Shown here: positions 1,800 to 40,181 of the stretch, one piece after another | How the letters are laid out: every line of letters starts with the position of its first letter | How positions within the stretch are numbered: position 1 is the first letter of the stretch | Assembly (NCBI GenBank): GCA_036253495.1 | Contig: GCA_036253495.1_4125.1 | From: a phage | Direction: 5' to 3' (one strand) | DNA length: 64,000 nucleotides | Made by a program: the position numbers and the translations under genes | The notes under the pieces: model-generated | The model's input: the letters and a program-made list of their open reading frames with translations, nothing else | Told to the model about the DNA's origin: nothing | Database searches by the model: none

Positions 1800-1806
1800 T
1801 TTTAAA

Positions 1807-1832
1807 GCCAGGGTATTGACTCTGGCTTTTTT
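1807..1832 (+). terminator. rho-independent terminator
   Basis: GC hairpin gccagg..tctggc followed by TTTTTT. Confidence 0.7.
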
Positions 1833-1872
1833 CTTTGCTATTATTTTAATATTATTTAACCGAGGATATCAT

Positions 1873-2427
1873 ATGGACAATTACCTATTAATCTTACAAA
1901 TTTACAACGAACTGGGAAAACTTCTTGAAACGTGTAATTCACAGGGACGTAAATTAAGAATCGGTTTCGATTATGAAATTGAATACACAGGAGAGGGTAT
2001 TGCAACGCAGCAGATGTTCACAGAAGAAAATAAAACTATTCTGTGCGTTTACCCACATGAAGGTGATGAGGAAGACTGTGTTGTTGATTTTTCATATGAC
2101 AGTTCTTGGGCTTTTATTTCACGTAATCCTCGAATGAAAGAGGCAGTGGATTACAAAGAACCATCATATGATCCTATTGCGTTGTTCAGTACTGAGAATT
2201 TAGAAGAACAAAATTTCCAGAGTTCTGTAACTCACGATAAATTAATCACTGATGCACTTACGATTGAAGCTTTAGCACGTAACTATAAATTTGATTTCAA
2301 TCTCAATAATTATTATATGTCATATAGTGCAACAGCATCATTACTCACTGATGATCAATTAGTAGTATTACTCAAGGACTTGAAAAACTACGCACAAACG
2401 AGAAAAGAACATGAAAACACTAATTGA
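1873..2427 (+). CDS. hypothetical protein, FQ-motif paralog family
   Basis: Track ORF 1816..2427 trimmed to first ATG at 1873 (GAGGA RBS; upstream part overlaps the terminator); motif EEQNFQSS. Confidence 0.65.
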   Translation: MDNYLLILQIYNELGKLLETCNSQGRKLRIGFDYEIEYTGEGIATQQMFTEENKTILCVYPHEGDEEDCVVDFSYDSSWAFISRNPRMKEAVDYKEPSYDPIALFSTENLEEQNFQSSVTHDKLITDALTIEALARNYKFDFNLNNYYMSYSATASLLTDDQLVVLLKDLKNYAQTRKEHENTN

Positions 2428-2983
2428 TATTTTTAAAGTACTAGAAGAACTTACTCATAAGTTAGATGAACAAAAAAGAACTGAGAATATTTTTCATTAC
2501 TTCAACAATCCAATGTACCGATTAGTTTTTGATTGCAGTACTTTGTATCGTTATGCTAATATCCAAATACAACACTGCATTCAACATAAAACCAAAAATA
2601 TATGGTCAGTTGATGCTTCTTATGTGGCATCAGGCAGAGAGAGTAAATTTTTGGGTTCAGTTTCTGATTGTAGTCTTACTGTGAATAAACTCAAAGAAAC
2701 TAACGAATTAATCGTCAGAAATTTGTACGATGATTATTATGATGATGAAGAATATCTTCATATTGCACCTGAGCTACAAAATCCAGAAGAGCGAGAAGCA
2801 TATCTTTTCCAGTTGTCGTTGCTCCCAGGTTATGATATGATAGCTAAAGCTGATTTTGTATATCAACTATCAATGCAACTTGGTAGTGGGGAGTGTTCTG
2901 CTTTCAATAATCTATACAATGAAAGTACTGAAACACAAGAAGAATTATTGGAGGAATTAAATGCATTTCTCAAATCTTTATAA
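2411..2983 (+). CDS. hypothetical protein, FQ-motif paralog family
   Basis: ORF track; motif AYLFQLSL; short overlap with neighbours. Confidence 0.65.
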   Translation: MKTLIDIFKVLEELTHKLDEQKRTENIFHYFNNPMYRLVFDCSTLYRYANIQIQHCIQHKTKNIWSVDASYVASGRESKFLGSVSDCSLTVNKLKETNELIVRNLYDDYYDDEEYLHIAPELQNPEEREAYLFQLSLLPGYDMIAKADFVYQLSMQLGSGECSAFNNLYNESTETQEELLEELNAFLKSL

Positions 2984-3539
2984 TTACATGTCCGAAGAGT
3001 ATCAATATTACACTAAGATGGTTTTGAAAGTGAATGCTATTCTTAATAGTGATTTATGTAAAACTAAAAAGACATTTAATCTCCCATATATGCGTTTGGC
3101 GATTACTAAAGACCAGGAAGGTATGTATGATCATGCAGTAGTTTCGATGAATGATCTACGTGTCTTTCTGATAATTAAGTACAATAAAGAAGATTTAACC
3201 AACAACGATGGGTACATTAACTACGATTATATTATTGGAGGAAATGCTGAAGTTCCAGGGACAAGTGAATTTGCAGGGATTGTTATTTCAGGTAAAAAAA
3301 TTCCAAAGATTAATCTTAACAGTAGTACTATAGAAGAAGAACTATTCCAGTTAAGTACTATGTACAGTACTAACGAATTGGATTTATTACTTTTCAGTAC
3401 AATCGTCAATCATGAACTGGATAAGAAAGACAAATACTGTCCATTGCAACAAATTGTTCATCGTTTCAAACGTAGTGAATTTAAAAGAATTCATGAAGGT
3501 CTGGACAGTCTTATTAACAATACTGGGGATTTCTCATGA
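2961..3539 (+). CDS. hypothetical protein, FQ-motif paralog family
   Basis: ORF track; motif EEELFQLST. Confidence 0.65.
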   Translation: MHFSNLYNYMSEEYQYYTKMVLKVNAILNSDLCKTKKTFNLPYMRLAITKDQEGMYDHAVVSMNDLRVFLIIKYNKEDLTNNDGYINYDYIIGGNAEVPGTSEFAGIVISGKKIPKINLNSSTIEEELFQLSTMYSTNELDLLLFSTIVNHELDKKDKYCPLQQIVHRFKRSEFKRIHEGLDSLINNTGDFS

Positions 3540-4096
3540 AATATAGTCTTTACTATAGAGGGAAGTTCCTTGAGAAGTTTATTGAAGATTGTGTAGCTGC
3601 ACTGAGTTTAATTCGTGAAGGTGAATACATTAAAGTCAATCACACTGTACTAAGAGATCTTAATTTTTTTCTGAGTGGTGATTTGAATAATGATATGCAC
3701 TTCACAATAACGTACAACCACAAAGATATCATTGAAATCAATACACAACAACGACACATAAAAGAATACACCCGATTACGCAATACCAAGACAAAGCGTG
3801 TAGTAATTAAAAAAGGTGATGTAGAGTTGATGTGTAAAGATAGTACTGCAATAGATATCAGTACTTACTTCGATAATGAAGAAGATATGGATTGTGATTG
3901 CTTCCAGAAGAGTTTAATTATTGATGATCCGTATGTACTGTACGGTGCAGTACTGGCTCCGTTCTGTCAGAAGAACTTACCAGATGGATGTACGGTTGAA
4001 TTGAACTTGACAGAACTCATGAATGATGATATATTTGAGTACATGAGTACTAACTCCAAGGCAATGATTGAACATATTAAGGCAATCCAATGTTAA
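3536..4096 (+). CDS. hypothetical protein, FQ-motif paralog family
   Basis: ORF track; ATGA overlap; motif DCDCFQKSL. Confidence 0.65.
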   Translation: MKYSLYYRGKFLEKFIEDCVAALSLIREGEYIKVNHTVLRDLNFFLSGDLNNDMHFTITYNHKDIIEINTQQRHIKEYTRLRNTKTKRVVIKKGDVELMCKDSTAIDISTYFDNEEDMDCDCFQKSLIIDDPYVLYGAVLAPFCQKNLPDGCTVELNLTELMNDDIFEYMSTNSKAMIEHIKAIQC

Positions 4097-4575
4097 ATCC
4101 AGCAGACGTTATTAAATTTTGTAAAATTCTTGAGAAGTATTCTCATAAATTTGTGCACGAAGTACAGATAATGATTGATGGCATTCCCTTTAACTTCGTG
4201 AAAAACAACGACATTATCGCTGTGTTCTGTGGCTCATGGACATTTTGTGAACTCAACTGTCAAGAATCTCAAAATGTTATTGTGAAACGAAACATGATCC
4301 TATCAAGGGAAAGTTCAGTATTCATTGAACCAAGTGGTGAAATCATATACGAGAAAAAGAACGGCGACAGAACTTTAGATGATTTTATGGCTGAATTGAG
4401 CCTTGATAATGAGTTTCATAGAAATGCAGTACTGATACATAGTGCTATGGTGCATGAAACTAATTTAAATTCTATATCAATTAATTTCGGTGTTTATTCT
4501 TATTACAAATTTACATTTGATATGATATTTCAAACACTTAACAAACATCCTATATTCTGGAAATGCAATGAATAA
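4090..4575 (+). CDS. hypothetical protein
   Basis: ORF track; tight packing. Confidence 0.6.
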   Translation: MLNPADVIKFCKILEKYSHKFVHEVQIMIDGIPFNFVKNNDIIAVFCGSWTFCELNCQESQNVIVKRNMILSRESSVFIEPSGEIIYEKKNGDRTLDDFMAELSLDNEFHRNAVLIHSAMVHETNLNSISINFGVYSYYKFTFDMIFQTLNKHPIFWKCNE

Positions 4576-5026
4576 AGACGATTACGAATTACTGAAAAAG
4601 TTAATCCAGTACTGCCTCAATGAACTGGATAATGGTAAAGCTCGAAAATCAGGTTCATGGTTTGATGTAAGCTATCCATCAGACGGCGATGATATGATGA
4701 CATTATGGTCAAATGAAAGATACATTGATTATAGTGTAATGGATAATACTACTATAGATTATGTCAATGACAATGTATGGTATTTCAATACACAGTTAAT
4801 CATTGATATTAAAAGTATAGATTTAAGTACTGAGATTGATGAAGCAACCATATTTCAATTAAGTACTTTGTATTCTGATGAAGTGATATATCCGTTATTA
4901 CTTCTCCTACAGTTGCGAGCCATTGCAGCAGAACGTGGTTTCACATCCATATCATTTGCTCATGACATTGATGTACGAAGAGCTGAAATTACAAAATTAG
5001 TTGAGGGATATGATGGAACACTTTAG
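4568..5026 (+). CDS. hypothetical protein, FQ-motif paralog family
   Basis: ORF track; motif DEATIFQLST. Confidence 0.65.
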   Translation: MNKDDYELLKKLIQYCLNELDNGKARKSGSWFDVSYPSDGDDMMTLWSNERYIDYSVMDNTTIDYVNDNVWYFNTQLIIDIKSIDLSTEIDEATIFQLSTLYSDEVIYPLLLLLQLRAIAAERGFTSISFAHDIDVRRAEITKLVEGYDGTL

Positions 5027-5504
5027 TACTAAAGACTTTGTGGAATTGCATAAAATTCTTGAAGAAAAATATATCAATGAACAATATGGTCGATTCGAAC
5101 TGGCTCCAGATATTATTCTTAAAATACAAAAAGATGGTATGATCCGAGTTGTATTTGAGCAGAAAAGAGGTTTAGACCATGACATTTTCATGCTCTTTGA
5201 TAGCAATAGTCCTATCTATGATGCACCAAGTTTCGATACAAGCACCATTGGTTCACAATCCGCAGTCTTTCATCCAGGAACTACTGTTGTAAAAATCGAT
5301 GGTGTAGATTGCAACATGCGACCTGTATCATTGGATGAAATTGATGAAGTTGAATTTCAGAACAGTACTGTGAATAATTATAGTGCAATGTTCACCTACA
5401 TGTGCTATCTTAACAGTACTTGTTGCAAATTTCTTATGTACACATCGTATGTAAATGAAGATGAAGTACTACACTATGTATTGAAAAAACTAAGAGAATT
5501 ATGA
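5001..5504 (+). CDS. hypothetical protein, FQ-motif paralog family
   Basis: ORF track; motif EVEFQNST. Confidence 0.65.
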   Translation: MRDMMEHFSTKDFVELHKILEEKYINEQYGRFELAPDIILKIQKDGMIRVVFEQKRGLDHDIFMLFDSNSPIYDAPSFDTSTIGSQSAVFHPGTTVVKIDGVDCNMRPVSLDEIDEVEFQNSTVNNYSAMFTYMCYLNSTCCKFLMYTSYVNEDEVLHYVLKKLREL

Positions 5505-5505
5505 T

Positions 5506-6108
5506 ATGATCATTGACATGCCTATTCTTAATAAAATGCTTAACCCTGTCATTACGTTAGCTAAAAGTATTTCTAATAATGAAAAGTTGCATCTCCCATA
5601 CTCTATGTTAACGTATGCAACTGATTTTTACAGGATTGAAATCTCGGCATGTGAACAACGAATTACACTAGCATTCAAACGCCTTGGTGCTGGACTTGCA
5701 AATGATTTTGATATTTCACTGATACTTCATGGTGAATTAGAAGATAGTAAAATTCTGTCCTATGAAAGAATTCTTCGCAGTACAAATGAAATAAAATTAT
5801 TCAAAACATTTTCACATTATAATGGTTCTGATGTTTCATATTATTTTGATAAGGATTCATTTAAGAATATCAAAAGTGTTGAAGTGAAAGATTTCAGCGA
5901 AGAATGGTATTTTCAAAATACATTAATTCATTCTTTACCTTCATATGAAGAAATGAAGATGAACATTGATCTTTATGAAAAATTAAAATCAGAACTGAAA
6001 TGTAATTTTCTATTATCAATGAACTACAAAAAGATCAGTACTGATGTGGTATTGGAAGATGAACTAATGAAACGAATTTGGTCTGCTATACCAGTTATTA
6101 AGGAATAA
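5506..6108 (+). CDS. hypothetical protein, FQ-motif paralog family
   Basis: ORF track; motif EEWYFQNTL. Confidence 0.65.
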   Translation: MIIDMPILNKMLNPVITLAKSISNNEKLHLPYSMLTYATDFYRIEISACEQRITLAFKRLGAGLANDFDISLILHGELEDSKILSYERILRSTNEIKLFKTFSHYNGSDVSYYFDKDSFKNIKSVEVKDFSEEWYFQNTLIHSLPSYEEMKMNIDLYEKLKSELKCNFLLSMNYKKISTDVVLEDELMKRIWSAIPVIKE

Positions 6109-6110
6109 TA

Positions 6111-6650
6111 ATGCACATTGCAACATTATCAAATACTAAAGAATTTGAGCTATGGCCTGAGAAAGTTAACAGCTTAAGACAGCGTTATGTGAATTTCTGC
6201 CGTGGTATCAGGAAAGCCAGTAGAATGTCACATTCACTAAGCATGTCAATTGATGGTTGTGTTATGAATGCAGATAAGAACCGTTTGTACGTTGAATCAT
6301 ACAGTTCGCAAGCTCTGTACATTATGCTTCATGCTGGTACACAAATCCCACAGAATTCGATTGGTTGTTATTCAATTACATGGTCTGGACGAAAGTCTAC
6401 TAAATTATATCCGTGCAAAAGAAACGACCAATCGTTCAGTGTTGATATTAATTACTGTGAGTACACTGAAGAAGAACACTTTCAGCACAGTACTCTTCAT
6501 GATATCATTGAGTACAATGAATGCATCAATGTACTGGATAAATGTTATGATTTAGAACATAATACTGGTATCGTTGTAGTTAATAATTGCTTTTTTGATA
6601 GTGATGTACTTGATACATTAGATTATTTTTTAGAGGGTTACAATGACTAA
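6111..6650 (+). CDS. hypothetical protein, FQ-motif paralog family
   Basis: ORF track; motif EEEHFQHST. Confidence 0.65.
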   Translation: MHIATLSNTKEFELWPEKVNSLRQRYVNFCRGIRKASRMSHSLSMSIDGCVMNADKNRLYVESYSSQALYIMLHAGTQIPQNSIGCYSITWSGRKSTKLYPCKRNDQSFSVDINYCEYTEEEHFQHSTLHDIIEYNECINVLDKCYDLEHNTGIVVVNNCFFDSDVLDTLDYFLEGYND

Positions 6651-7260
6651 CATTAGAACAGAGTATGTTAAGTACGAGAAAGCACTACGTGATTTACTAA
6701 ACATTGCACCGGATTTAATTAGAGCTAAACAAACACTATTTGACAAGTACGGTCCGAAAAGTGAACTCAAGCTATCAAAAAAGGGAAAACCCACACAATA
6801 TACAACGCTGTATAATAGATATAGCGTTGGGATTTGTAATATCTATACAGATGAATTAGTACTGGAATTAACCCAAGACGATGATGAAGAAGCACATGAT
6901 TTATTTCCTGAATTTGAAGAGTGCATGTTTAGTCCAGGTAATCCAGTGTTTTTAACCTTAAATGATGGAAGAAAAACGCTAAAAGAATCGTTCATCACAT
7001 ATGATGCCAAAACTAAAACACTAATGGATATTGAATCTGGGTATAAGACTGATCTGAAATCACTTGAAGATTGTAAGGGTGCATTGTTTCAGATGGGTGT
7101 AATCACAGAGGTTACCACTACACCAGAAGAATTATGGCTTATGGTTTCAGTACTGAATGATTGGTACAAAGTGAAGAGTCTACGAAATATGTTCATTTAT
7201 ATCAAGCCTGATTGCATCAAGAAAGAAACACTAATTAACAATATGGTAATACCTGAATGA
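6643..7260 (+). CDS. hypothetical protein, FQ-motif paralog family
   Basis: ORF track; motif GALFQMGV. Confidence 0.65.
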   Translation: MTNIRTEYVKYEKALRDLLNIAPDLIRAKQTLFDKYGPKSELKLSKKGKPTQYTTLYNRYSVGICNIYTDELVLELTQDDDEEAHDLFPEFEECMFSPGNPVFLTLNDGRKTLKESFITYDAKTKTLMDIESGYKTDLKSLEDCKGALFQMGVITEVTTTPEELWLMVSVLNDWYKVKSLRNMFIYIKPDCIKKETLINNMVIPE

Positions 7261-7856
7261 AAAAAGATCCAAATGAAGACTTAATCAATTCTTTAAGTAC
7301 TATCAAAGATTTGTGGTTACGATATCGTGGATTGTATAGTGTTAAAGATACAGAAAATAACATACTCCAAAGTCTTAAAATCACGATTCGAATGCAATTC
7401 AAAAATGGAATGGCAGTTGATGTTGAGATGAACAAAACTGGAGTTTATGTATATGATGGTTCTCGAACTGCAATCTTTATGGCAGAATTCATAGATGAAG
7501 ACTGTAATCTATATTGTTCATACGACATTGAAAGTGGTGATATCGAAATGTTCGCTAATGAACCTATCCTGCTCCGTTTCACTAAATCATGGAATGAAGA
7601 TTACATTATATATCAAAATGGAGGCTTCTTAAATTCCGATGAGGAACCCATCGATAACATAGAAGAAATGGCATTCCAGAGTAGTACTGTTAATGATGAT
7701 GCATTATCTTATCAAGAAATCCTTGACACAGTGAATGGTTATGATAAGATACAGGCTGCAATGAAAGAGAACGGTATCTGTTACCTTACAGTACTGGACA
7801 AACTCTTCTACGATGAACTGTGTTCGTACCTGAACTGTATTCTCACTGAGGATTGA
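7257..7856 (+). CDS. hypothetical protein, FQ-motif paralog family
   Basis: ORF track; motif IEEMAFQSST. Confidence 0.65.
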   Translation: MKKDPNEDLINSLSTIKDLWLRYRGLYSVKDTENNILQSLKITIRMQFKNGMAVDVEMNKTGVYVYDGSRTAIFMAEFIDEDCNLYCSYDIESGDIEMFANEPILLRFTKSWNEDYIIYQNGGFLNSDEEPIDNIEEMAFQSSTVNDDALSYQEILDTVNGYDKIQAAMKENGICYLTVLDKLFYDELCSYLNCILTED

Positions 7857-8272
7857 TGATGATTCTATACCATGCAAGTACTGTTAAAATTGACAACTTC
7901 TACATTCCTTATGGTGGTTTACATATGGGAGGGAAGCATAGTGCTCTTGAGGCTGCGTTACGCAAGCTGAGAAGCCCACTGAACGTTGTTGATGCTGACA
8001 CGGTGTACTTGCATACCTTAGAAGTTGACGTTGATAACGTGCTTCTGTGTGAGGATATGGGTAGTGATGACGAATGGCGATCACTTATTGAGTATTGTGA
8101 TACTGAAGGTTACGATGCAGTTCAGTACAAGAATGAATACGAGCCGGACAATGTTCCTAGTTATATGATTTGGGATACATCTAAAGTTCGTATTGTTGAA
8201 GTTGATGCTATGCATATGGATGAAGCTGAAATGATTATCGAAGATTTTCTTGATGAATATGAAGGTGTATAA
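7856..8272 (+). CDS. hypothetical protein
   Basis: Track ORF 7853..8272 (TTG) trimmed to ATG at 7856 overlapping upstream stop (TGATG). Confidence 0.6.
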   Translation: MMILYHASTVKIDNFYIPYGGLHMGGKHSALEAALRKLRSPLNVVDADTVYLHTLEVDVDNVLLCEDMGSDDEWRSLIEYCDTEGYDAVQYKNEYEPDNVPSYMIWDTSKVRIVEVDAMHMDEAEMIIEDFLDEYEGV

Positions 8273-8796
8273 TGACTGATTCAATGACAGTACTGGTACG
8301 TACTAAGTTACTATTGAAGATTGGTGAGATTTTCACAGATCTTATGCACAATCAAATTGATATTACAGAACTAGATATTAAGCAACCGTGGGAAATTACA
8401 AGGTTCTCGGCGTTCCACCGATTGTCATATAAAGGTGAAACTGTTCTTGATTTTAATCACAAAGCAAAATTCATGGATTATGCCGCGTTGTACCGAAATA
8501 ATTATTCAGGTTGTATAACCAATAACTTCAAAGGAATAAAAGTACAGATTGAATCAATTGAATTTAACGAATTACTATATCCAGAATTTAAGTTAACTGA
8601 AGAATCTATGTTTCAGTACTCACTAATTCTAAAAGATCTAGAAACTCTAGAGTACTACAGAGAGTTAGTAGATATTTTTATGAATGTTCGTCTTTCAAAA
8701 GATATTGTGATATTCTGGTATACAGAGCGTATTACAGAGGAAGTACTTGAAGAATTTCTCGTAAATATGACAGCTATTAAGGAGAATTTATGTTAG
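8272..8796 (+). CDS. hypothetical protein, FQ-motif paralog family
   Basis: ORF track; motif EESMFQYSL. Confidence 0.65.
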   Translation: MTDSMTVLVRTKLLLKIGEIFTDLMHNQIDITELDIKQPWEITRFSAFHRLSYKGETVLDFNHKAKFMDYAALYRNNYSGCITNNFKGIKVQIESIEFNELLYPEFKLTEESMFQYSLILKDLETLEYYRELVDIFMNVRLSKDIVIFWYTERITEEVLEEFLVNMTAIKENLC

Positions 8797-9254
8797 ACAT
8801 TTTAGGAAACATTGATACGGTAAACTTTTTTATTCAAGACGCAATTATCAATATCACATCAAAGCCAATCCAAGTTAGAAGTAACTTTTATAGTGGGGAT
8901 GGTTATATGGTTGATATTGTTGAAGTTAAGAAAAATGTTTTCCAAATCAATATTCTCACACAAACGAGAACACAGATTTCTCGTATCATCATCAATAAAG
9001 ATGAAGCCGTCATTCGTTATAATTCAAAATTCATGATGTTCTTTAAAAAGAAAACTGGTATGTTCAGTACTAATCTCTTTGATGAATCATTTTATTCAAC
9101 CGATGTGGAATCTACCTTCTTCACACAAAGTACATTTATCAAATTTGATAGTATTGAGTTCGATTCAAATATCATGTCAGAAACATTACAATGCCTAAAG
9201 GTATTACATAATGAATTTACCAACTTTATCGATAGCCGAAACAAGATTAACTAA
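8790..9254 (+). CDS. hypothetical protein, probable FQ-family member
   Basis: ORF track; degenerate motif FFTQSTF. Confidence 0.6.
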   Translation: MLDILGNIDTVNFFIQDAIINITSKPIQVRSNFYSGDGYMVDIVEVKKNVFQINILTQTRTQISRIIINKDEAVIRYNSKFMMFFKKKTGMFSTNLFDESFYSTDVESTFFTQSTFIKFDSIEFDSNIMSETLQCLKVLHNEFTNFIDSRNKIN

Positions 9255-9669
9255 TATAAATGAATTAGTTAATGCTATCTTATCATGCAAATTAAAAATT
9301 GATACCAAATGTAAGTACAATGGTATTAATTTATACAAATTAAAATATTCACGAATACATAATTCAGTAAAATACATTTACGGTACTAGTCAAATCATCT
9401 TTGAAACGGTTACAGTGAACAGTAAATTACTTATTGATGTTTATATCAGTAATAAGATTAAAAATTCACAAAAAGTGTTGACAGTTTCTTCTGATAATGT
9501 TACTATGTTTGATACCAACAATAAGAAGTTAGATATTGATTTAGATGTTATTCTTGATGGTGACTTATTCCAGTACGAGTGTATTGGTCTAAATAATCCA
9601 TTTGATAAATCAGTACTAGTCAATTTAATCAAACATATTAAGGGTATTTTAGATGAAACTAACAACTGA
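9211..9669 (+). CDS. hypothetical protein, probable FQ-family member
   Basis: ORF track; motif GDLFQYEC; 44 nt overlap with upstream ORF, start uncertain. Confidence 0.55.
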   Translation: MNLPTLSIAETRLTNINELVNAILSCKLKIDTKCKYNGINLYKLKYSRIHNSVKYIYGTSQIIFETVTVNSKLLIDVYISNKIKNSQKVLTVSSDNVTMFDTNNKKLDIDLDVILDGDLFQYECIGLNNPFDKSVLVNLIKHIKGILDETNN

Positions 9670-10153
9670 TATGAAACTTTGCATTTCTTTGATTATGCGT
9701 TCATTCGATGACAAAAGGACAAGTAAAGTTACTATCACCAATGACCATTTACAATGCAGTACACTCAATAGTACTGTAGTTTTCGGATTACATAGCCTCC
9801 GTTTGACGATAGTAAATAATATTGACAATACGGCGATGTGTATTACCCCCTGCCACGTTCAGGATGAACATGGTGTTTATCTTCACCACATGGGGACTTC
9901 GTATTTCATTTTCAATGAAGAAAAGGGAGTACAAAAAGACTTTAACACGTTGTGCGTAGACGGCGGTGAATTGTTCCAGATGGGAACTTTATATCAGTGT
10001 GATTTTACTGATACATCTGAAGTACTTCCATTATTTCTTGATCTCATTAAGAATTTAGGTTCATTTACTGGTCGCTATAACAAATCATTAAAGGCACAGG
10101 CAATTCAAAATATCTCGGAAGCAATAGAATATTACGAAAACGCTGTGTCGTAA
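9653..10153 (+). CDS. hypothetical protein, FQ-motif paralog family
   Basis: ORF track; motif GELFQMGTL. Confidence 0.65.
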   Translation: MKLTTDMKLCISLIMRSFDDKRTSKVTITNDHLQCSTLNSTVVFGLHSLRLTIVNNIDNTAMCITPCHVQDEHGVYLHHMGTSYFIFNEEKGVQKDFNTLCVDGGELFQMGTLYQCDFTDTSEVLPLFLDLIKNLGSFTGRYNKSLKAQAIQNISEAIEYYENAVS

Positions 10154-10193
10154 CACCAGCACATGGATGTGCGATGACGATCAAGGATAGATC

Positions 10194-10667: not shown

Positions 10668-10669
10668 TT

Positions 10670-31230: not shown

Positions 31231-31239
31231 GGATATAAA

Positions 31240-33073: not shown

Positions 33074-33082
33074 GGGAATATA

Positions 33083-34501
33083 ATGAGCATTTTAGCAATT
33101 CTGGAACAAATCAAAAAGACTTCAAGTACACTTGGTAAGAAAGCAATCCTTGAAGAAAACAAAAACAATGAAACACTCAAAAAAGTACTGAAATATACGC
33201 TAGACCCTACTATCGTAAGTGGCTATAAGAAGCTACCAGACGCTACTGACGTGTATCAACATATGACGTTAGATGAAGCTATTGATAAGCTAGAATGCAT
33301 CTATAAGCGTGGTGTGACGGGTAATACAGGGCGTGATTTCATTGCTTCAGTACTAGGTTCTGTTTCCGACGATGACCAGGAAGTTCTCCGTAAAATGCTC
33401 ACGAAGAACCTTGATTGTGGTATTCAGGAAAAGAACTGTAATGATGTATTCGGTAAAGGCTTCATTAAAGATGAACCTTATATGCGTTGTTCATTGATTG
33501 ACAAGAAAACTGCTAAGAACATCAACTTCAAAGATTATGGTTATGCAGTCGCTGAGCATAAATTAGATGGGATGTATATGAACCACGTTGTTATCAATGC
33601 ATCATTAACATCCACTTCCCGTAATGGTAAGATTTATGACTTCCTCGGTTGTCGTGATGCTGAAATGGCTGGCCTTGCTCATCATATCCAAAGTACAGAT
33701 GAACGTTTCAGTAGTGGTGTAGTCTTTATGGGTGAGGGTTTAGTACTGGATACTGATGGGGAAACTATTCTTCCACGTACAACTGGTAACGGCATCATTC
33801 AGAAAGCTGGTAAGGATACTATCACCCAAAACGAAGCAATGCGTACTGTATTTGTACTATGGGATGTAGTGCCATACGATGCATATTGTGATGGTATCTG
33901 GGATGTAAAACGTAAGGAACGTCGCGAGATTCTCGAAGGTGCAATCAATGCATTAGGTAGTGAATTCGTGCGTATGGTTGGATATCGTAAGGTGAAGGAT
34001 CTCAAAGAAGCCTTTGCTTACAACTCTGAACTCATGAGTTCAGGTGAAGAAGGTTCAGTACTGAAATGTGAAGATGGTATCTGGAAATCTCATACTTCTC
34101 CTAAGCAGTTGAAAATGAAATTGAAAATGCAACTGGACTTGCGTATTGTTGGTTTCAATGAAGGTGAAGGTAAGCGTAAAGGTATGCTTGGTTCTTTACA
34201 ACTCGAAAGTGCTTGTGGTACACTGAAAGTAAGTGTTGGAACAGGCATTAAAGAGAAAGACGCTGAATGGACATTTAAAACCATTTGGGAAAGAATGCAA
34301 GAACTCATTGGCAAAGTTGTTACAATAGAGTGCAATGACGTAGTATATGATAAGCGTACTGGTGAGCCATCACTATTTTTACCAGTGTTTATTGAATTTA
34401 GATTTGACAAAAACACGTGTGACGATTATACTCGTATTTTAGAAATTCGCGAGAGTGCAGTTGAAGTGTTCTCTAACAGTATTATTGAATCAATTTCGTA
34501 A
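33083..34501 (+). CDS. ATP-dependent DNA ligase (T4 gp30-like)
   Basis: 472 aa; ligase motif I KxDG (AEHKLDGMY); N terminus ILEQIKKTSSTLGKKAILEENKNNE resembles T4 DNA ligase. Confidence 0.85.
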   Translation: MSILAILEQIKKTSSTLGKKAILEENKNNETLKKVLKYTLDPTIVSGYKKLPDATDVYQHMTLDEAIDKLECIYKRGVTGNTGRDFIASVLGSVSDDDQEVLRKMLTKNLDCGIQEKNCNDVFGKGFIKDEPYMRCSLIDKKTAKNINFKDYGYAVAEHKLDGMYMNHVVINASLTSTSRNGKIYDFLGCRDAEMAGLAHHIQSTDERFSSGVVFMGEGLVLDTDGETILPRTTGNGIIQKAGKDTITQNEAMRTVFVLWDVVPYDAYCDGIWDVKRKERREILEGAINALGSEFVRMVGYRKVKDLKEAFAYNSELMSSGEEGSVLKCEDGIWKSHTSPKQLKMKLKMQLDLRIVGFNEGEGKRKGMLGSLQLESACGTLKVSVGTGIKEKDAEWTFKTIWERMQELIGKVVTIECNDVVYDKRTGEPSLFLPVFIEFRFDKNTCDDYTRILEIRESAVEVFSNSIIESIS

Positions 34502-34515
34502 CGGATGATAATATC

Positions 34516-35592
34516 ATGATTGACAATGCTATTATACAAAGTGTGAATTTATTTTTATCAAGTGATGCATTGTCAATCTCTAATACTATTTGGAAAGAGA
34601 AATACAAATGGCTTCCAGAAAATTTTAGTTTTGATATGCTGGAAACTGATTCGTATAGTGAAAATAATAACAATATTCATGGTTTTGTCCGAACTGGTAA
34701 AAATGGATATACAAAAATGTATTTTCATAGTTGTGATGTTTGTAAACAAGATTCGTCATTGCACGGTCTTGGTATTTTCGCATCTGTACGAAGTAATTTG
34801 GAAAAAGGTATAGTTGCATGTGATTGTTCCATAACTTCAAAACTAACAAAATATCAATATATTGCTAAAATTTATAAAAAATGTTTGGAACTTGGATACG
34901 AATTTATTGGATTTAATGAGGATTGGGAATCAACACAGCCAAAAGGACTAATCCATCTAAAATTATCATGTAATATTCATGGATTATGGAATACAACAAC
35001 AATTGATAATTTACTGTTCCACTCTAAAGGTTGTAAGGAATGTGGGAGACGTAAAATCAGCCAAGCTAGAACAATTGGAGATGAATTCCATATAAATGAG
35101 TTTTTCAAAACAGGTAAATTTAGTAAAGGTAGTAAGTTTTGGCGTTCTGACCGTTTGAATACTTATGGTTACAAGAATTATTGGTTTTATGAATGTTCAG
35201 TATGTCATATGGTAGTTGAATCACAGATTGGTAACCTAAAGGATGGAAAAGTACCATGTTTATGTAATGGAAACATCCAACAACAATGCTATATAAATTT
35301 AGTACTTGACAATAATATTCCAATTGCATTAAAATATGGTATAGCAAACAACTTCACAACGAGAGAAAAATCTCAAAATAAGCATTCAATCTATGATATT
35401 GTAAACAGTGGTGTTTGGGAATTTGAAACAGTATCATTGTGTAAATCAGCAGAAGCGGAATGTAAGAGAATTTTCTCACCAGTACTTGAAGCTCGTGAAA
35501 TGAAAGATGGATATACGGAAACTACATCACCATTAGATATTGACAAAATCATTGAAATATATGAGAATTGGGGTGGTGTGCGAATAAAATAA
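34516..35592 (+). CDS. Cys-rich hypothetical protein
   Basis: 358 aa; several Cys pairs (CDVC, CKEC, CSVC); no confident family assignment. Confidence 0.6.
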   Translation: MIDNAIIQSVNLFLSSDALSISNTIWKEKYKWLPENFSFDMLETDSYSENNNNIHGFVRTGKNGYTKMYFHSCDVCKQDSSLHGLGIFASVRSNLEKGIVACDCSITSKLTKYQYIAKIYKKCLELGYEFIGFNEDWESTQPKGLIHLKLSCNIHGLWNTTTIDNLLFHSKGCKECGRRKISQARTIGDEFHINEFFKTGKFSKGSKFWRSDRLNTYGYKNYWFYECSVCHMVVESQIGNLKDGKVPCLCNGNIQQQCYINLVLDNNIPIALKYGIANNFTTREKSQNKHSIYDIVNSGVWEFETVSLCKSAEAECKRIFSPVLEAREMKDGYTETTSPLDIDKIIEIYENWGGVRIK

Positions 35593-35604
35593 CTGGAGGT
35601 GATT

Positions 35605-36396
35605 ATGAAATTTGTTGTAACGTCAGACGTACACGGTGGCACTGATTACCTCCATAGTGGTGATTACAGTGATACAGTACTGATCATTGCAGGGGACTTT
35701 GATGAAGCTAAACGCAGTCGTTATCGTACTGGTATCGAATCCCTGTGCAAGCAGTTCAAGAATGTAGTACTGGTTCCTGGCAACCACGAGTACTACGGTT
35801 CAAACATTCACAAGACTAATAAAGTTCTGTCCGATATGCAAGATGAGATTCCAAATTTCATCTTTTTGCAAAACAAATTTGTATGGCTGGATGGTGTCCT
35901 GCTCGTTGGTAGTACTCTGTGGACAGACTTTGACAAAGGTAATTCCATGACGAAGTTTGATGCTCGTCAGAAGATGAACGATTACAAACATATTCGTCAT
36001 GGAACAACATCCGAGCCTTGGCGTAAGAAACTGACACCCGAAGATACTGAGTTCATGCATCACAAAGATAAACAATTTATCAAAAATTCAGTTGACACAG
36101 TACGCTTAATGCAGGATAATGATTTCAAGGTCATCGTGATTACCCATCACGCACCGAGTTTTCAAAGTGTTTCGCCAAAATATAAAAACGATTCACTGAA
36201 TGGTTGTTACTGTTCAGACATGGATCAGTACATTGAAGATTTGGGTGCTGATGTTTGGATTCATGGTCATGTTCATAGTAGCTTTGATTACCACATCGGT
36301 AAGACACGTATCATTTGTAATCCAAGAGGTTACGAATCTTATAGTGGAGCTTGTGAGAATTTCGATTACAATCCCAAATTGGTATTCGAAATCTAA
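35605..36396 (+). CDS. calcineurin-like metallophosphoesterase
   Basis: Track ORF trimmed to ATG with GGAGG RBS; motifs SDVHGG, AGDFDE, GNHEYYG, GHVHSS. Confidence 0.8.
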   Translation: MKFVVTSDVHGGTDYLHSGDYSDTVLIIAGDFDEAKRSRYRTGIESLCKQFKNVVLVPGNHEYYGSNIHKTNKVLSDMQDEIPNFIFLQNKFVWLDGVLLVGSTLWTDFDKGNSMTKFDARQKMNDYKHIRHGTTSEPWRKKLTPEDTEFMHHKDKQFIKNSVDTVRLMQDNDFKVIVITHHAPSFQSVSPKYKNDSLNGCYCSDMDQYIEDLGADVWIHGHVHSSFDYHIGKTRIICNPRGYESYSGACENFDYNPKLVFEI

Positions 36397-36404
36397 GGAT
36401 TACT

Positions 36405-36800
36405 ATGATATATACATTGCATACAAAAGACAAAATGATCGTAATCAATGGAAGTACTCGTATGTTCCAAAGATATGGTATGCGTCTAGTGACTTATTGT
36501 GATAAAGTTCAATTCTATGATGATAAGAAAGGAATCAATTCAGTACTGAAAGATAGGTATCACTATAGTCGTGATATCCAGAGAGCAGATGATTTGGATT
36601 CTTTTAGTGGTAAAGTGTACGTTGTTGTTTGTGATGATAGTAAAGGTGATGTGTTACCTTTCAGTACTTTTGCATGTAATATGTTCTTTAGAAATGAACT
36701 CCCTGATTCATTCAGAATGATTGAGGTTGATTTTGATACCATACCGTGTGGAATTCGTTTAGAATTTCTTAACGCACTGGTATCAATTAGGGAGTACTGA
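36405..36800 (+). CDS. hypothetical protein
   Basis: ORF track; AAGGA RBS. Confidence 0.65.
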   Translation: MIYTLHTKDKMIVINGSTRMFQRYGMRLVTYCDKVQFYDDKKGINSVLKDRYHYSRDIQRADDLDSFSGKVYVVVCDDSKGDVLPFSTFACNMFFRNELPDSFRMIEVDFDTIPCGIRLEFLNALVSIREY

Positions 36801-37183
36801 TGAAACTTATTACTGTGTACACAATTGTATATAATAACGAAATCAAGTACGTGTTAAATGCAAACTTACACCACACTAGAGGTGAAACAAAGTTACAACA
36901 GAACAGTACAGAAATCTCTCACTACTGGCTGGATGATGATTCAGTTGAAGTGTATATTGATGGTCGTGCTGAATACTATGATGCAGTTTTCTTTGAAGAT
37001 TTAGATAAATCGAACGAATTCTTCATTTATGTCAGTACTGACCAATATTATACGCATTCTTTGTTTGACATTACCAACACTTCTGTGTATGATACAGGTA
37101 TGGTTAGGTTACTGAAGATAGACCCAACTCTGTACAACAAAGAAACAATTTACGGTTTACTAGATTTTACAAGAAAATTGTAG
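36800..37183 (+). CDS. hypothetical protein
   Basis: ORF track; ATGA overlap. Confidence 0.65.
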   Translation: MKLITVYTIVYNNEIKYVLNANLHHTRGETKLQQNSTEISHYWLDDDSVEVYIDGRAEYYDAVFFEDLDKSNEFFIYVSTDQYYTHSLFDITNTSVYDTGMVRLLKIDPTLYNKETIYGLLDFTRKL

Positions 37184-37208
37184 ACAAATACGAACACTGT
37201 GATATAAT
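37181..37208 (+). promoter_or_regulatory. sigma70-like early promoter (TAGACA-16-TGnTATAAT)
   Basis: TAGACA, 16 nt spacer, GTGATATAAT; about 36 nt upstream of the ClpP-like gene. Confidence 0.5.
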
Positions 37209-37243
37209 ACTCACATCAATGAAACAATAGAGGAAAATATACA

Positions 37244-37939
37244 ATGACTCAACAATTTATGTTTGGTGGTTATGCGAATGGTGAAACAACTAACATTTCA
37301 ATTCCATATGTAGTTGAAAAAGTTAATGGCAACGAACGTACTTATGATCTAGCATCTCGTATGATGCAAGACCGTATCATTTTCCTTGATACTGATTTCA
37401 ACGACCAGATGGCACATATCATCAAGCAACAATTGGTGTGGTTGGATTCTCAAGGTTCTGAACCAATTACTCTTTATATTTCCTCGCCGGGTGGTAGTGT
37501 TCATGCAGGTTTGGGTATTTCTGATATTGCTAAATCTTGTGTATCACCAATCCGCACAGTAGTGATGGGTTATGCAGCATCAATGGGTTGCTACACACAA
37601 TCAGTAGTTGGTACTAAAGGTTATCGTCTTGGTGGTAAACGCTCGTACTTTATGTGTCACCAAGTAAGTTCTGGTACACAAGGTCTGATCACTGATCAGA
37701 AAATTGCACTAAAACACTCTGATGCATTGAACACATTGCTGACGAAAGAAATCGCTGAAGCTGTAGGTGTTTCTCATGAAAAACTACTAGAAGATGCGGA
37801 CCGCGATTTGTGGTTGAGTGCAGATGAAGCACTTGAGTATGGTGAACTTGGATTTATCGATGGTATTATCCTTGGTCCACGTAATGAAAAAGGTCAATAC
37901 CTAGTTAAACGTCGCGGTGGCGTGGAAGAGTGGGTATAA
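37244..37939 (+). CDS. clpP: ClpP-family serine peptidase
   Basis: 231 aa; ClpP signature blocks ISSPGGSV.AGLGI and MGYAASMG (catalytic Ser), His in MCHQ, Asp in DADRDLW. Confidence 0.85.
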   Translation: MTQQFMFGGYANGETTNISIPYVVEKVNGNERTYDLASRMMQDRIIFLDTDFNDQMAHIIKQQLVWLDSQGSEPITLYISSPGGSVHAGLGISDIAKSCVSPIRTVVMGYAASMGCYTQSVVGTKGYRLGGKRSYFMCHQVSSGTQGLITDQKIALKHSDALNTLLTKEIAEAVGVSHEKLLEDADRDLWLSADEALEYGELGFIDGIILGPRNEKGQYLVKRRGGVEEWV

Positions 37940-37965
37940 TTCAGTACTAAAACTTAAAATATATT

Positions 37966-37990
37966 ATGCCTCACTATGTGGGGCATTTTC
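37966..37990 (+). terminator. rho-independent terminator
   Basis: Hairpin tgcctca/tggggca followed by TTTTC. Confidence 0.55.
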
Positions 37991-38002
37991 TAAGGAGTTA
38001 AA

Positions 38003-38296
38003 ATGTCAAAGAAACTTGTACGAAACTCTAGCACTGAAGAAGTTGAAATTCTTGATGATTCGGAATTCATCAGTACTGCACTAGAGCAGATCAGTACTCA
38101 AGCGTTAGCACTAAAAGACATTAAAGAATCAGAAGACCTACTGGTTGGTATGGCTGAAATTCTTGAATTGATGCAAGAAGTTCTTATGAAGAACAATATT
38201 AAACCAATTGATGCGGTGCAATATGCTGCAAATTTGCGAGCCGAACACGGTTCATTCAACGAGAAAAAAGCTGTCAGCACAGAAGATAAGGAATAA
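38003..38296 (+). CDS. hypothetical acidic protein
   Basis: ORF track; AGGAG RBS. Confidence 0.65.
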   Translation: MSKKLVRNSSTEEVEILDDSEFISTALEQISTQALALKDIKESEDLLVGMAEILELMQEVLMKNNIKPIDAVQYAANLRAEHGSFNEKKAVSTEDKE

Positions 38297-38300
38297 TACA

Positions 38301-38747
38301 ATGGCTAATGAACAACACAAAGAAGGTTATGACGCGTTTAAAAACAAAGTAGTTTTTAACAATGAACAGCTAAAATCACAGCACCCACTATTCCGTCAAG
38401 GCTATCGTGCTGCACAAGCTGACGCAATGAAGAAAAACAATGTAACCTTCCCAACTACATTGTTTGATATTCCTAAACGTCCTGAAGTGTTTAAGGCTGA
38501 TTGGACTGATATTATGGCAGCAACTAAACGACCACGTTTTGCAAAACTACATACCGACGAAGGTAAATGGCTGCTAATGGGTATCATGAAAGCTGTTGAA
38601 AAACGTGCACATACTATTGTCCGTTATCGTGATGTTGTTACTATGGTAGATGAAGCATTTGATATTGTACTTCAGTACGGCTACGATGAAGGTGTATTAA
38701 CTGTTGAAGATTGTCAACAATATAACTATACACCGACCGAAAAGTGA
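38301..38747 (+). CDS. hypothetical protein
   Basis: Track ORF 38208..38747 trimmed to ATG with AAGGA RBS. Confidence 0.65.
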   Translation: MANEQHKEGYDAFKNKVVFNNEQLKSQHPLFRQGYRAAQADAMKKNNVTFPTTLFDIPKRPEVFKADWTDIMAATKRPRFAKLHTDEGKWLLMGIMKAVEKRAHTIVRYRDVVTMVDEAFDIVLQYGYDEGVLTVEDCQQYNYTPTEK

Positions 38748-38757
38748 TTAAATAAAT

Positions 38758-38780
38758 GGGAGTCATTGTACTCCCTTTTC
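38758..38780 (+). terminator. rho-independent terminator
   Basis: Hairpin gggagt/actccc followed by TTTTC. Confidence 0.6.
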
Positions 38781-38795
38781 GCATAGGTAAATTAT

Positions 38796-39149
38796 ATGAG
38801 TAAAGTTTACATTTCTGTTGATATGGATTATTCATCTGATCCTATATGGACTTCTAAAACAGGAGACTATTGGATTAATGATGATCTTGATGGATACAAA
38901 AAACTTTTTAGTGCAGGTTTAATGCATAGCTTGTATGTTTACCAGCAAATTTGGGAGGCATCCAATTGGAGTTCATATCTGTCACCATCGGATATGATAA
39001 ATGTGGAAGCACCTGGGATGTTTATGATCCAACAAGCATCACATATATTAAGTCAAGCTTGTGCAGTACAAATAAAGAAGGAGTTTCCTGACTGGCACGT
39101 CTTTTATTGGTGCGACGCAAGTAACACTAGGAAGGAGGTAATACTTTAA
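38796..39149 (+). CDS. hypothetical protein
   Basis: ORF track. Confidence 0.65.
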   Translation: MSKVYISVDMDYSSDPIWTSKTGDYWINDDLDGYKKLFSAGLMHSLYVYQQIWEASNWSSYLSPSDMINVEAPGMFMIQQASHILSQACAVQIKKEFPDWHVFYWCDASNTRKEVIL

Positions 39150-39658
39150 TGATCTTTAAAATCACTAAAGAAAGCAGTATTGAGTTCTCAAAAAATATGT
39201 TTTTAATAAATGAGTACGCAAAAAATATCAGTACTGAAGCAATAGAAATAACCAAGAAATGGTACGATAATTATTTGAATACAAGAAAATGGTATCATAA
39301 AATTAATGATTACCAGTGGTTTCTTACTACTATAACTGAGGGAGATGGACTAGTATTAAGATATAATTGTATGAATTTTAATTACATTGGACTTGATTTC
39401 AATTCAACAATTGTTGGTATGGATATTAAAAAAATTAGAAAATTAACATCAATCAATACTAAGGAAATATATGAAGAATCGGGTAAAGTTTGGGAAGCTG
39501 TAACATTTATGATTAAGCACTCGTCATTTATGTATAGAAATTATGATATTAGTATGGATTTACAAGGTCGTAATATCCCATATACTTTAGATGAAAAACA
39601 ATATCATCACATGAAAATGTGTGAAGAGATGGTTGAATCTTTAAAATTAAAGGAGTGA
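39149..39658 (+). CDS. hypothetical protein
   Basis: ORF track; ATGA overlap. Confidence 0.65.
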   Translation: MIFKITKESSIEFSKNMFLINEYAKNISTEAIEITKKWYDNYLNTRKWYHKINDYQWFLTTITEGDGLVLRYNCMNFNYIGLDFNSTIVGMDIKKIRKLTSINTKEIYEESGKVWEAVTFMIKHSSFMYRNYDISMDLQGRNIPYTLDEKQYHHMKMCEEMVESLKLKE

Positions 39659-39659
39659 T

Positions 39660-40181
39660 ATGAACTATAATCAATTATCACAAGAAGATACTGATATTTG
39701 GCTAAAGAACGTAAACAATACGTTGGAACTTGTGCGACAATGTATTTCGGAAGCTGACCGTGTATCAGACGAAGCTAAAGAAAAAACATACAAACACTTT
39801 CACCGTAATATCTTCATGAAAATTTATGCACTTACTATGTATAATATGTACAAACCATCTGATATTTTTATTGGGTTGTATAGTGGGGCGATGTTCACAT
39901 TAGGTGGGATTTTTTCAGATACTGGTCGTACATTAGAACAAAACGAAAAAGATGTTATCGTGGCAGTTGATAAGATTATGAATAAGGAAGTGGATTTCAT
40001 TCTGGAAATCGTTCGTTGCTGGAATGTTTATAGCTCAAAACCATTTGACATTACACAGAAAGATATAGTAGACTATATGCGTATTTTACGTACACATCAG
40101 ATCTGTAAAGAACTATTAACCAATTTAGGGACATATGATGAAACATACAACGTGGTTGAAGATAGCCAGTGTCGTTGCTGA
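39660..40181 (+). CDS. hypothetical protein
   Basis: ORF track. Confidence 0.65.
   Translation: MNYNQLSQEDTDIWLKNVNNTLELVRQCISEADRVSDEAKEKTYKHFHRNIFMKIYALTMYNMYKPSDIFIGLYSGAMFTLGGIFSDTGRTLEQNEKDVIVAVDKIMNKEVDFILEIVRCWNVYSSKPFDITQKDIVDYMRILRTHQICKELLTNLGTYDETYNVVEDSQCRC

Follow-up and report, generated by a model that had tools for sequence, protein, structure and literature searches.

What keeps a single short palindrome at high density along the chromosome of a large phage, and what might read it? The question is raised by a 64,000-nucleotide stretch of phage DNA (assembly GCA_036253495.1, contig GCA_036253495.1_4125.1; the whole stretch is referred to below as the window), in which a preliminary description, made by eye, had noted an unusual number of copies of the hexamer AGTACT. 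Our analysis shows that this excess is about 10-fold for the hexamer and about 50–70-fold for the 8-mer built around it, that it extends across a clade of phages, and that it is under selection beyond any coding explanation. AGTACT has also been incorporated into the early promoters of three phage genera, and there is an interplay between the hexamer and a conserved ban on the trinucleotide ACT on the sense strand.

In the window, whose G+C content is 34.5%, AGTACT occurs 177 times (2.77/kb). Dinucleotide-preserving shuffles of the same DNA yielded 17.8 ± 4.1 copies with a maximum of 29, making the enrichment stronger than first claimed, and an exact census against Markov backgrounds predicted 34.8 (order 2) and 66.9 (order 3) copies; the observed number is about 10 times the order-1 and 5 times the order-2 expectation. 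When hexamers were ranked by z-score, AGTACT came first, followed by its own sub-strings CAGTAC and GTACTG. ORF calling gave 114 open reading frames (ORFs; 90% coding, 109 on the + strand), which contain 161 of the sites. A synonymous shuffle that kept each protein and the codon usage of each gene, the kind of null that the preliminary description had proposed as a check, gave 40.6 ± 5.6 copies (maximum 55) and did not reproduce this count; permuting codon order within ORFs gave 23.1 ± 4.7. The sites fall in all three reading frames (86, 58 and 17), each enriched 3–4.5× over the protein-preserving null, in agreement with the claim that no single peptide motif accounts for them, and the four local counts made by eye (6, 9, 14 and 5) were about right (7, 8, 13 and 6). 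The 16 sites outside called ORFs, some of which may fall in genes with non-ATG starts, have a density equal to that of coding DNA.

The context of the hexamer is short and symmetric. C precedes it at 59% of sites and G follows it at 51%, T is preferred at −2 and A at +2, and no information is found past ±3, giving the extended consensus W-T-C-AGTACT-G-A-W. The frequent C and G flanks had been noticed by eye, and the resulting 8-mer CAGTACTG occurs 57 times against 0.8 expected (0.9/kb, 68×); TCAGTACTGA occurs 18 times. Because no flank is conserved beyond ±3 bp, AGTACT is not a repeat element of the repetitive extragenic palindromic (REP) or miniature inverted-repeat transposable element (MITE) kind. 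Although the preferences are symmetric, left and right flanks are statistically independent (six loci), as expected from two identical half-site readers and unlike what selection for extended hairpins would produce. The hairpins mentioned in the preliminary description were upheld in a single case, where one AGTACT lies at a convincing apex (25859–25882); no others were found in the window, and the independent flanks together with this lone real hairpin rule out selection for a hairpin or cruciform.

These results bear directly on the trivial possibility that composition, codon usage, a conserved peptide or a repeat family produces the excess as an artefact. Repeated units do supply some sites, namely the early-promoter cassettes and a TGTACT-bearing paralogous peptide motif discussed below, but every null falls short by 4–10×, non-coding DNA and all frames are enriched, the flanks are not conserved, and relatives of matching composition lack the excess. 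We regard this explanation as already refuted by the nulls, with a practically negligible chance of being right.

The sites are scattered without apparent order. Regular spacing and clustering were looked for in the window; instead, the intervals between sites follow an exponential, Poisson-like distribution (coefficient of variation 0.96), and 36 genes lack AGTACT where a Poisson model predicts 37. Among one-mismatch neighbors, those altered at an outer position (NGTACT/AGTACN) occur at 1.8–2.6× expectation and inner-position variants at 0.5–1.9×, none being depleted in the window, and the non-palindromic GTACT is enriched only 1.0–1.7×. Other palindromes show the opposite behavior. Sixteen palindromic hexamers are absent from the window although at least 3 copies of each are expected, a loss that is extreme restriction-site avoidance and is common to all AGTACT-enriched relatives, in which many GC-containing palindromes of this length are missing entirely. 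The absentees include CTGCAG, CAGCTG, GGTACC and CCATGG (10–12 expected each) as well as GCATGC, CGTACG and GGATCC, and ACTAGT, TGATCA and CTTAAG are held to 0.3–0.4× expectation. AGTACT, enriched 10×, does not behave as an avoided restriction target and is a conspicuous exception in a genome that otherwise avoids palindromes.

The closest match of the window is Escherichia phage A4 (ON286972, 355,528 bp, Asteriusvirus), with 98–99% identity from A4 position ~50,744 onward; relative to A4, the window carries two additional insertions. A4 belongs to the RaK2/121Q/PBECO4/GAP32 group of jumbo myoviruses and has a T4-like replication and recombination apparatus. Its whole genome holds 922 copies of AGTACT against 101 expected, and 224 copies of CAGTACTG against 4.8. 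Density is 6–8/kb in the first 25 kb, a region of tiny early ORFs and σ70 promoters, 2–3.5/kb in the part matching the window and 1–2/kb in the structural-gene region, and it is lower in longer genes; the sparseness that had been noted in one 2.7-kb gene of the window (2 sites at 59545–62244) was borne out. The preliminary description had placed the excess in an early-gene region at 1.8–40 kb. That restriction does not hold, since the remainder of the window still has 2.0/kb and the excess is genome-wide, with its peak outside the window. At ~4,140–6,140 of A4, and at ~1,090–3,060 of phage Turkey3 L019, ~2 kb without any annotated ORF carry ~10 AGTACT/kb, mostly as ttcAGTACTga; the role of this stretch could be regulatory, or it could contain an origin or give rise to non-coding RNA. 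At 353,405, close to paralogous ‘DNA condensation protein’ genes, A4 repeats its opening 25 bases; for Sharanji, a terminal repeat of 20.7 kb has been published without coordinates.

Comparison with related genomes, which had been suggested as a further check, shows that the excess follows phylogeny. We sampled four genera of RaK2-like phages of Enterobacterales: Asteriusvirus (A4 and Turkey3, host E. coli), Alcyoneusvirus (RaK2, host Klebsiella), Mimasvirus (GAP32, host Cronobacter, and CBB, host Pectobacterium) and Eneladusvirus (BF, host Serratia). AGTACT ranks first among hexamers in every phage sampled, reaching 8–11× expectation and an almost uniform 2.2–3.0/kb. In contrast, it is depleted to 0.3× in the closest relatives from other hosts, PA5oct of Pseudomonas and Atu_ph07 of Agrobacterium, whose base composition is the same. 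A search for a comparable motif of their own in these outgroups gave at best TGCAG at 2.8× in PA5oct and none in Atu_ph07. In the 109–150 kb segment of PA5oct (NC_071039), where TGCAG stands at 2.8×, TGCAGA reaches ~4×, CTGCAG occurs 12 times against 4 expected and AGTACT 3 times against 11.6. A 50-kb sample of E. coli K-12 contains 3 copies of AGTACT (0.06/kb), so that the phage is ~45-fold denser than that sample. The genome papers on RaK2, CBB, Sharanji and PA5oct do not mention an AGTACT motif, and the literature on AGTACT in these phages, on highly iterated palindromes (HIPs) and on ScaI yielded no earlier description of the excess. AGTACT is a lineage-specific highly iterated palindrome of RaK2/121Q/GAP32-type Enterobacterales jumbo phages.

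Across the genera the core hexamer is constant and the flanks drift, from C/G in Asteriusvirus to A/G,T in Mimasvirus, and in each genus the least frequent flanks are G at −1 and C at +1. This speaks to the notion that the phage DNA is loaded with sites for the host nucleoid-occlusion protein SlmA and thereby keeps the cell from dividing. AGTACT forms the center of the SlmA consensus GTGAGTACTCAC, and the trait is confined to phages of Enterobacterales. The SlmA literature describes G1, T2, R3, A4 and G5 as required, however, and the window contains 0 matches to the 12-bp palindrome GTRAGYRCTYAC, the GTR flank is present at 3 of 354 half-sites, and YAGTACTR outnumbers RAGTACTY by 103 to 10. 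The flanks that SlmA requires are opposite to those of AGTACT, which rules this hypothesis out and makes it highly improbable that division control is the explanation.

Individual sites are preserved over evolutionary time, as the proposal of selection for a nucleic-acid signal would predict. Across 31 kb in which the window could be aligned with Turkey3 (79.7% identity), 62 of 99 AGTACT sites are retained (62.6%), against 798 of 2,475 control hexamers of the same codon phase within 45 bp (32.2%; Fisher p = 1.5e-9), and gains and losses of AGTACT are balanced. The comparison with A4, at 1.5% divergence, agrees in direction, with mismatches at 9 of 1,032 motif positions against 880 of 59,644 elsewhere, a difference that is not significant. 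The proteins bear the imprint of the same pressure. Ser-Thr dipeptides number 138 against 89, and 86 of the 138 are encoded as AGT-ACT where codon usage predicts 19.6; the reverse codon pair, ACT-AGT, is missing altogether where 10 copies are expected. There are 151 Val-Leu dipeptides against 103, 81 of them encoded GTA-CTN, and the control dipeptide Leu-Val is encoded CTN-GTA in 18 cases. Selection at the nucleic-acid level thus holds AGTACT at 2–3 copies/kb, overriding codon choice and amino-acid order. The tRNA cluster at 304–307 kb of A4 comprises Ser(UGA), Gly(UCC), Ser(GCU), Met(CAU), Asn(GUU) and Thr(UGU), the tRNA-Gly having been found by ARAGORN and missing from the annotation of the record; phage tRNA-Ser(GCU) and tRNA-Thr(UGU) fit the heavy AGU/ACN codon load that AGTACT creates.

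Early promoters incorporate the hexamer. A4 has 16 copies of AAAAAGTAC-TTGCAw-N17-GTATAAT, ~10–25 promoters in each of CBB and BF read aaaAGTAC-TTGACA/TTGCAA-N~10-(G)AGTACT-(T/G)TATAAT, and AAAAGTAC-TTGCAA/TTGACA …(G)AGTACT(T/G)TATAAT recurs in all three phages. The first box overlaps the first base of the −35 hexamer and the second abuts the −10. In three early zones pooled, 33 pairs of sites lie 21–23 bp apart (9.4 expected) and 51 lie 18–23 bp apart (18.8 expected); the window gives a weaker echo, with 8 pairs at 18–23 bp against 2.9 expected. Judged by sequence, the boxes at the σ70 promoters of A4, CBB and BF look as operator boxes would, with fixed positions over the −35 and spacer and a phasing of whole helical turns.

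Fixed positions, two-fold symmetry and a spacing of two helical turns are hallmarks of a dimeric reader of duplex DNA, and chiefly for this reason we prefer a reading at the DNA level. We propose, tentatively and at somewhat below even confidence, that AGTACT is a selected duplex-DNA signal through which a putative symmetric factor, by binding and/or methylation, controls early promoters and marks the phage chromosome. The putative reader would be sequence-specific, would bind duplex AGTACT as a symmetric dimer, and is probably phage-encoded. Two boxes ~21 bp apart would bracket the −35 and spacer in the manner of operators, so that the factor, or the methyl mark that it leaves, could control early transcription; the promoter pattern would also fit a promoter strength that depends on a mark placed on the boxes. 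The ~900 dispersed copies may distinguish the phage chromosome from host DNA, where sites are ~45-fold fewer, and could in addition offer the same factor a sink or landing pad. One candidate reader or modifier is the Dam-family methyltransferase encoded in the window (Table 1), homologues of which in CBB and GAP32 form the same syntenic pair with a cytidylyltransferase gene; a C5-methyltransferase is encoded elsewhere in A4. The methyltransferase protein is 95% identical to that of A4, in surroundings that are ~99% identical at the DNA level. For RaK2, the genome paper describes CpG methylation as well as a resistance to many restriction enzymes, and does not address AGTACT.

A different protein that acts on duplex DNA could in principle leave a similar trace. 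The sites might serve for binding or cleavage by a type IIA topoisomerase, either host gyrase or a phage topo II of T4 type, since A|GTAC|T is laid out like a 4-nt staggered cut; genes for topo II were found, and the G +1/C +4 arrangement resembles quinolone-stabilized gyrase sites. The gyrase motif described in the literature is a degenerate periodic pattern of 130 bp with a quinolone-induced GNNC preference, whereas AGTACT carries no information beyond ±3 bp. A sharp motif of 6–8 bp and a periodic one of ~130 bp are incompatible in type, the sites do not have the character of strong gyrase sites, and neither the promoter boxes nor the ACT ban described below would be explained. We have rejected the gyrase-site idea on these grounds and consider a topoisomerase very unlikely to be the reader.

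Two stretches of A4 within 25–39 kb, ~12 kb upstream of the start of the window, contain no AGTACT at all, and they reveal a further constraint. The larger of them, island B (31,575–38,554; 6,981 bp), has zero ACT on the + strand, where 136–146 are expected depending on the background, and a normal number of AGT; it is the sole run of this kind in the A4 genome. Its homologues in PBECO4 (7,620 bp, L013 7,920–15,538) and Turkey3 (8,790 bp, L019 30,004–38,792) are ACT-free as well, with 117–169 ACT expected in each of the three blocks (169 in Turkey3). A near-consensus σ70 promoter (TTGACA-17-TGcTATAGT, 31,301–31,329) starts transcription where the block begins, and four further promoters matching at 11/12 lie within the block on the + strand. 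The only ACTs that remain between the transcription start and the end of the block belong to one or two complete AGTACT sites near the 5′ end, one of which is conserved directly upstream of the ribosome-binding site of the second ORF. In place of AGTACT, island B carries AGTACA with the usual flanks at 5–6.6/kb (46, 44 and 47 copies in the three phages), and of 17 copies aligned between A4 and PBECO4, 14 are conserved, compared with 46% of controls (p = 0.005). The proteins encoded there are all of unknown function in Pfam and PHROGs. Two weaker anomalies of the ACT-free kind are a 6.0-kb CGC-free run at 38,973–45,002 of A4 (29 expected) and a 4.8-kb CGG-free run at 24,447–29,249 of Turkey3 L019 (27 expected).

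Island A (A4 25,255–29,750; PBECO4 L013 1–5,260; Turkey3 L019 22.4–26.5 kb) is likewise free of AGTACT. It has only TGTACT, inside a paralogous xxT-GTA-CTG peptide motif of a family of tiny ORFs, and AGTAC is almost absent from it. In 22 of 22 cases the codon before GTA ends in T and never in the synonymous A, which would create CAGTACTG. The two islands bear 5′-TGTACT-3′ on opposite strands. Both are Asteriusvirus-specific, conserved and subject to the same palindrome avoidance as the rest of the genome, which rules out the idea that they are foreign DNA.

The islands help to weigh a mutational origin for the excess, in which methylation of AGTACT together with biased short-patch repair would create and restore sites, their abundance being a by-product. 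Such a drive reportedly follows Elhai's model for the cyanobacterial palindrome HIP1. It would accord with the uniform, Poisson-like density in coding and non-coding DNA at 2.2–3.0/kb across genera, with fewer sites in mobile or accessory insertions, with the concentration of one-off variants at outer positions, and with the presence of methyltransferase genes. Yet no single-mismatch neighbor is depleted as a donor class should be, so that conversion from one donor class, in the manner of very-short-patch (VSP) repair, is not evident; fixed promoter positions and helical phasing indicate function, island A avoids the full site by synonymous choice in 22 of 22 cases, and one-sided sites are conserved. 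A by-product of repair seems to us distinctly unlikely.

The replacement of AGTACT by AGTACA in the ACT-free operon implies a second, strand-specific reader, and suggests that the ACT half of the motif is read on one strand, possibly in RNA. Since the ban begins at a transcription start, sensing of ACU on RNA is its simplest reading, with a T4-type primase as the alternative. In its full form the RNA explanation holds that AGUACU, with ACU as the minimal determinant, is the target of a phage- or host-encoded endoribonuclease following the logic of T4 RegB or MazF, that the enrichment programs fast decay of early and middle mRNAs, and that the ACU-free operon gives rise to immune transcripts. 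In its favor, the ACT-free block is sense-strand-specific, starts where the σ70 promoter starts transcription, is conserved in A4, PBECO4 and Turkey3, and keeps ACU only as complete AGUACU near the 5′ end of the transcript. Motif density declines from early through middle to late genes; on the sense strand of the window AGTACA stands at 1.46× and TGTACT at 1.0× of a codon-aware null, a skew that in A4 flips with gene orientation; and the phage invests in RNA repair, with an RNA ligase and a polynucleotide kinase both encoded in the window. Against it, a perfect 6-mer palindrome with symmetric flanks would be a 1-in-64 coincidence for a single-strand target, the boxes have fixed positions upstream of the −35, and neither the enrichment and conservation of AGUACA in the immune operon nor the TGTACT-only island is explained. 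A MazF or Kid homologue was not found: tblastn of A4 with MazF, ChpB and Kid queries gave none, and ChpB (which recognizes ACD) is ruled out as the cause of the ACU ban, ACA being enriched in the island. We consider the RNA signal rather improbable.

The primase explanation starts from the same strand asymmetry. T4 gp61 reads 5′-GTT/GCT with a cryptic 3′ T and makes 5-nt primers. A gp61 homologue that preferred 5′-WGTAC(T)-3′, with five templating bases and a cryptic 3′ T, would make a pppGUACW pentamer; the palindrome would then equip both strands with a strong site while burdening the coding sequence as little as possible, and the islands would be zones of priming on one strand. A T4-like primase and helicase are encoded in A4 (244,075–246,669), a reading of the gp61 type gives a hexamer footprint, ACT is one base from GCT, and the islands carry 5′-TGTACT-3′ on opposite strands. 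To our knowledge the only single-strand 3-nt readers are primases and MazF-type RNases, and single-strand reading of 3 nt would match a total ban on ACT. However, non-palindromic GTACT is barely enriched, one-sided sites keep their preference at both flanks, the fixed promoter boxes and 21-bp phasing are left unexplained, the ban begins at a transcription start, and the TGTACT of island A lies in a paralogous peptide motif. We therefore consider primase start sites unlikely as the source of the pattern.

Several observations also count against the duplex-DNA signal that we favor. A reader of duplex DNA alone leaves unexplained both the 7–9-kb operon that is ACT-free on the sense strand and has conserved AGTACA, and the neighboring TGTACT-only island. 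It is unclear why a promoter operator needs ~900 intragenic copies, and the gradient of density from early through middle to late genes fits relaxed coding constraint or RNA-decay logic equally well. The AGTACT binder, the modification and the recombination signal that the preliminary description listed as candidates all stay putative, and the Pfam family of the methyltransferase is one that we take to be best known for GATC, a sequence that is under-represented in the window (119 copies against 211 expected) despite the encoded Dam-family enzyme.

A further possibility, to which we give limited credence, is a two-layer code. AGTACT would act as an operator and self-mark in duplex DNA, and its ACU half would be the determinant of a putative endoribonuclease of triplet specificity, by which mRNA lifetimes are set or host and early messages are silenced, so that the ACU-purged, σ70-driven operon stays expressed while the RNase attacks. 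On such a reading, an ACU-free operon that keeps AGTACA would parallel in nature the ACA-less ‘single protein production’ system, which is an engineered one.

The features of the window that bear on these questions are collected in Table 1.

Table 1. Position and strand of AGTACT-related features and neighboring genes in the window.
Feature	Position	Strand	Remarks
Dispersed AGTACT copies	1..64000		n=177; 2.77/kb, Poisson-like spacing
Interval of the preliminary description	1800..40000		127 sites, 3.32/kb
Remainder of the window	40001..64000		47 sites, 1.96/kb, ~7× expectation
DNA N6-adenine methyltransferase, phage ‘Dam’ family	14952..15479	+	Pfam PF05869, E = 4e-32
Gene next after the methyltransferase	15476..16015	+	Conserved synteny; annotated cytidylyltransferase in A4 and CBB; no Pfam match
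Two AGTACT sites 21 bp apart	16017..16043		Two helical turns
RNA ligase gene (‘rnlA’ of the preliminary description)	22700..23845	+	6 sites, 5.2/kb
Perfect 24-bp palindrome AAAGGGATCAGTACTGATCCCTTT, then T-run	25859..25882		Terminator-like hairpin, AGTACT at apex
Insertion relative to A4	34493..35593	+	358-aa protein with three CapR homology domains; 1.8/kb
Promoter-like site AGTAC-TTGACA-N18-TAAAAT	35301..35335	+	Upstream box fused to −35; 0 matches in shuffles
Second 21-bp AGTACT pair	38072..38098		
Insertion relative to A4, splitting nrdD (anaerobic ribonucleotide reductase)	56452..58528	+	0.96/kb
GIY-YIG homing endonuclease with several helix-turn-helix domains	56783..57622	+	Inside the nrdD insertion
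Long gene of low density	59545..62244	+	2 sites, 0.74/kb

The promoter-like site in Table 1 sits upstream of a gene that starts at 35605 and shares its architecture with the early promoters of A4, CBB and BF. Besides the two insertions in the window, ~0.65 kb of A4 (61,556–62,214), comprising an HNH endonuclease gene and a small ORF, is missing from the window at ~10813–10830 and looks like another mobile-element polymorphism.

Known systems offer partial parallels. HIP1 is the highly iterated palindrome GCGATCGC of cyanobacteria, which also have alternate HIPs; the description that we use reportedly goes back to Robinson et al. and to Elhai (2015). In statistical anatomy, HIP1 is the closest known phenomenon. 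In both cases a short palindrome, whose 6-bp core lies within an optimum of 8 bp, occurs about once per 0.4–1 kb, far above any Markov expectation, in all frames and between genes; individual sites are conserved, one-off variants are biased to outer positions, and methyltransferase genes are present in the genome. In its density, its spread over frames outside any repeat element and its outer-position variants, AGTACT behaves as a palindrome of the HIP1 type. Unlike HIP1, it has a different, AT-rich sequence, is carried by a virus and not by a cellular chromosome, is built into promoters at fixed positions with helical phasing, and is accompanied by strand-specific disarmed variants in the AGTACA and TGTACT islands.

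Chi (GCTGGTGG) and the DNA uptake sequences and uptake signal sequences (DUS/USS) are similarly over-represented by ~5–10×, scattered through genes and lineage-specific, and Chi and DUS allow a protein to tell its own DNA from foreign DNA, a comparison invited here by the ~45-fold ratio of phage to host density. Unlike the palindrome AGTACT, Chi and DUS are asymmetric and orientation-dependent; AGTACT itself has no polar signature, polarity being confined to the two islands outside the window. The arrays of the MetJ ‘metbox’ AGACGTCT and the phage Arc and Mnt operators share with AGTACT the use of 6–8-bp palindromic boxes, and the operators of small dimeric repressors in general resemble it in having two boxes on the same helical face that overlap the −35 and spacer of σ70 promoters. 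Such operators number few per genome, whereas ~900 extra copies of AGTACT lie inside genes.

On the RNA side, the island-B operon upstream of the window is a triplet-free transcript of the ACA-less type: as in ACA-less mRNAs that escape MazF, one trinucleotide is fully absent from the sense strand of a transcription unit. T4 RegB, which cleaves GGAG in early mRNAs, provides a second likeness, a short motif concentrated in early transcripts. Unlike these cases, the missing triplet is ACU, the operon is outside the window and the enriched motif is palindromic; we know of no 3-nt-specific RNase for ACU. Finally, AGTACT is identical to the target of the ScaI restriction-modification system, and its enrichment is the reverse of the normal avoidance of restriction targets by phages.

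Phages are textbook avoiders of palindromes, yet a whole clade of 350-kb phages accumulates one such hexamer, at a cost that is visible in codon and amino-acid usage and that predates the divergence of the genera. Such a pattern suggests that phage DNA, and possibly RNA, has an abundant reader or modifier with sequence specificity, and the site, being cut by ScaI, is easy to assay. These phages provide a tractable viral model for highly iterated palindromes such as HIP1, and the promoter boxes define an early-promoter architecture for a poorly understood group of phages that is used in therapy research. Through the ACU-free operon, a new RNase of triplet specificity or some other single-strand reader may come to light. 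AGTACT density is, in addition, a simple marker by which DNA native to the clade can be told from recently acquired or host DNA.

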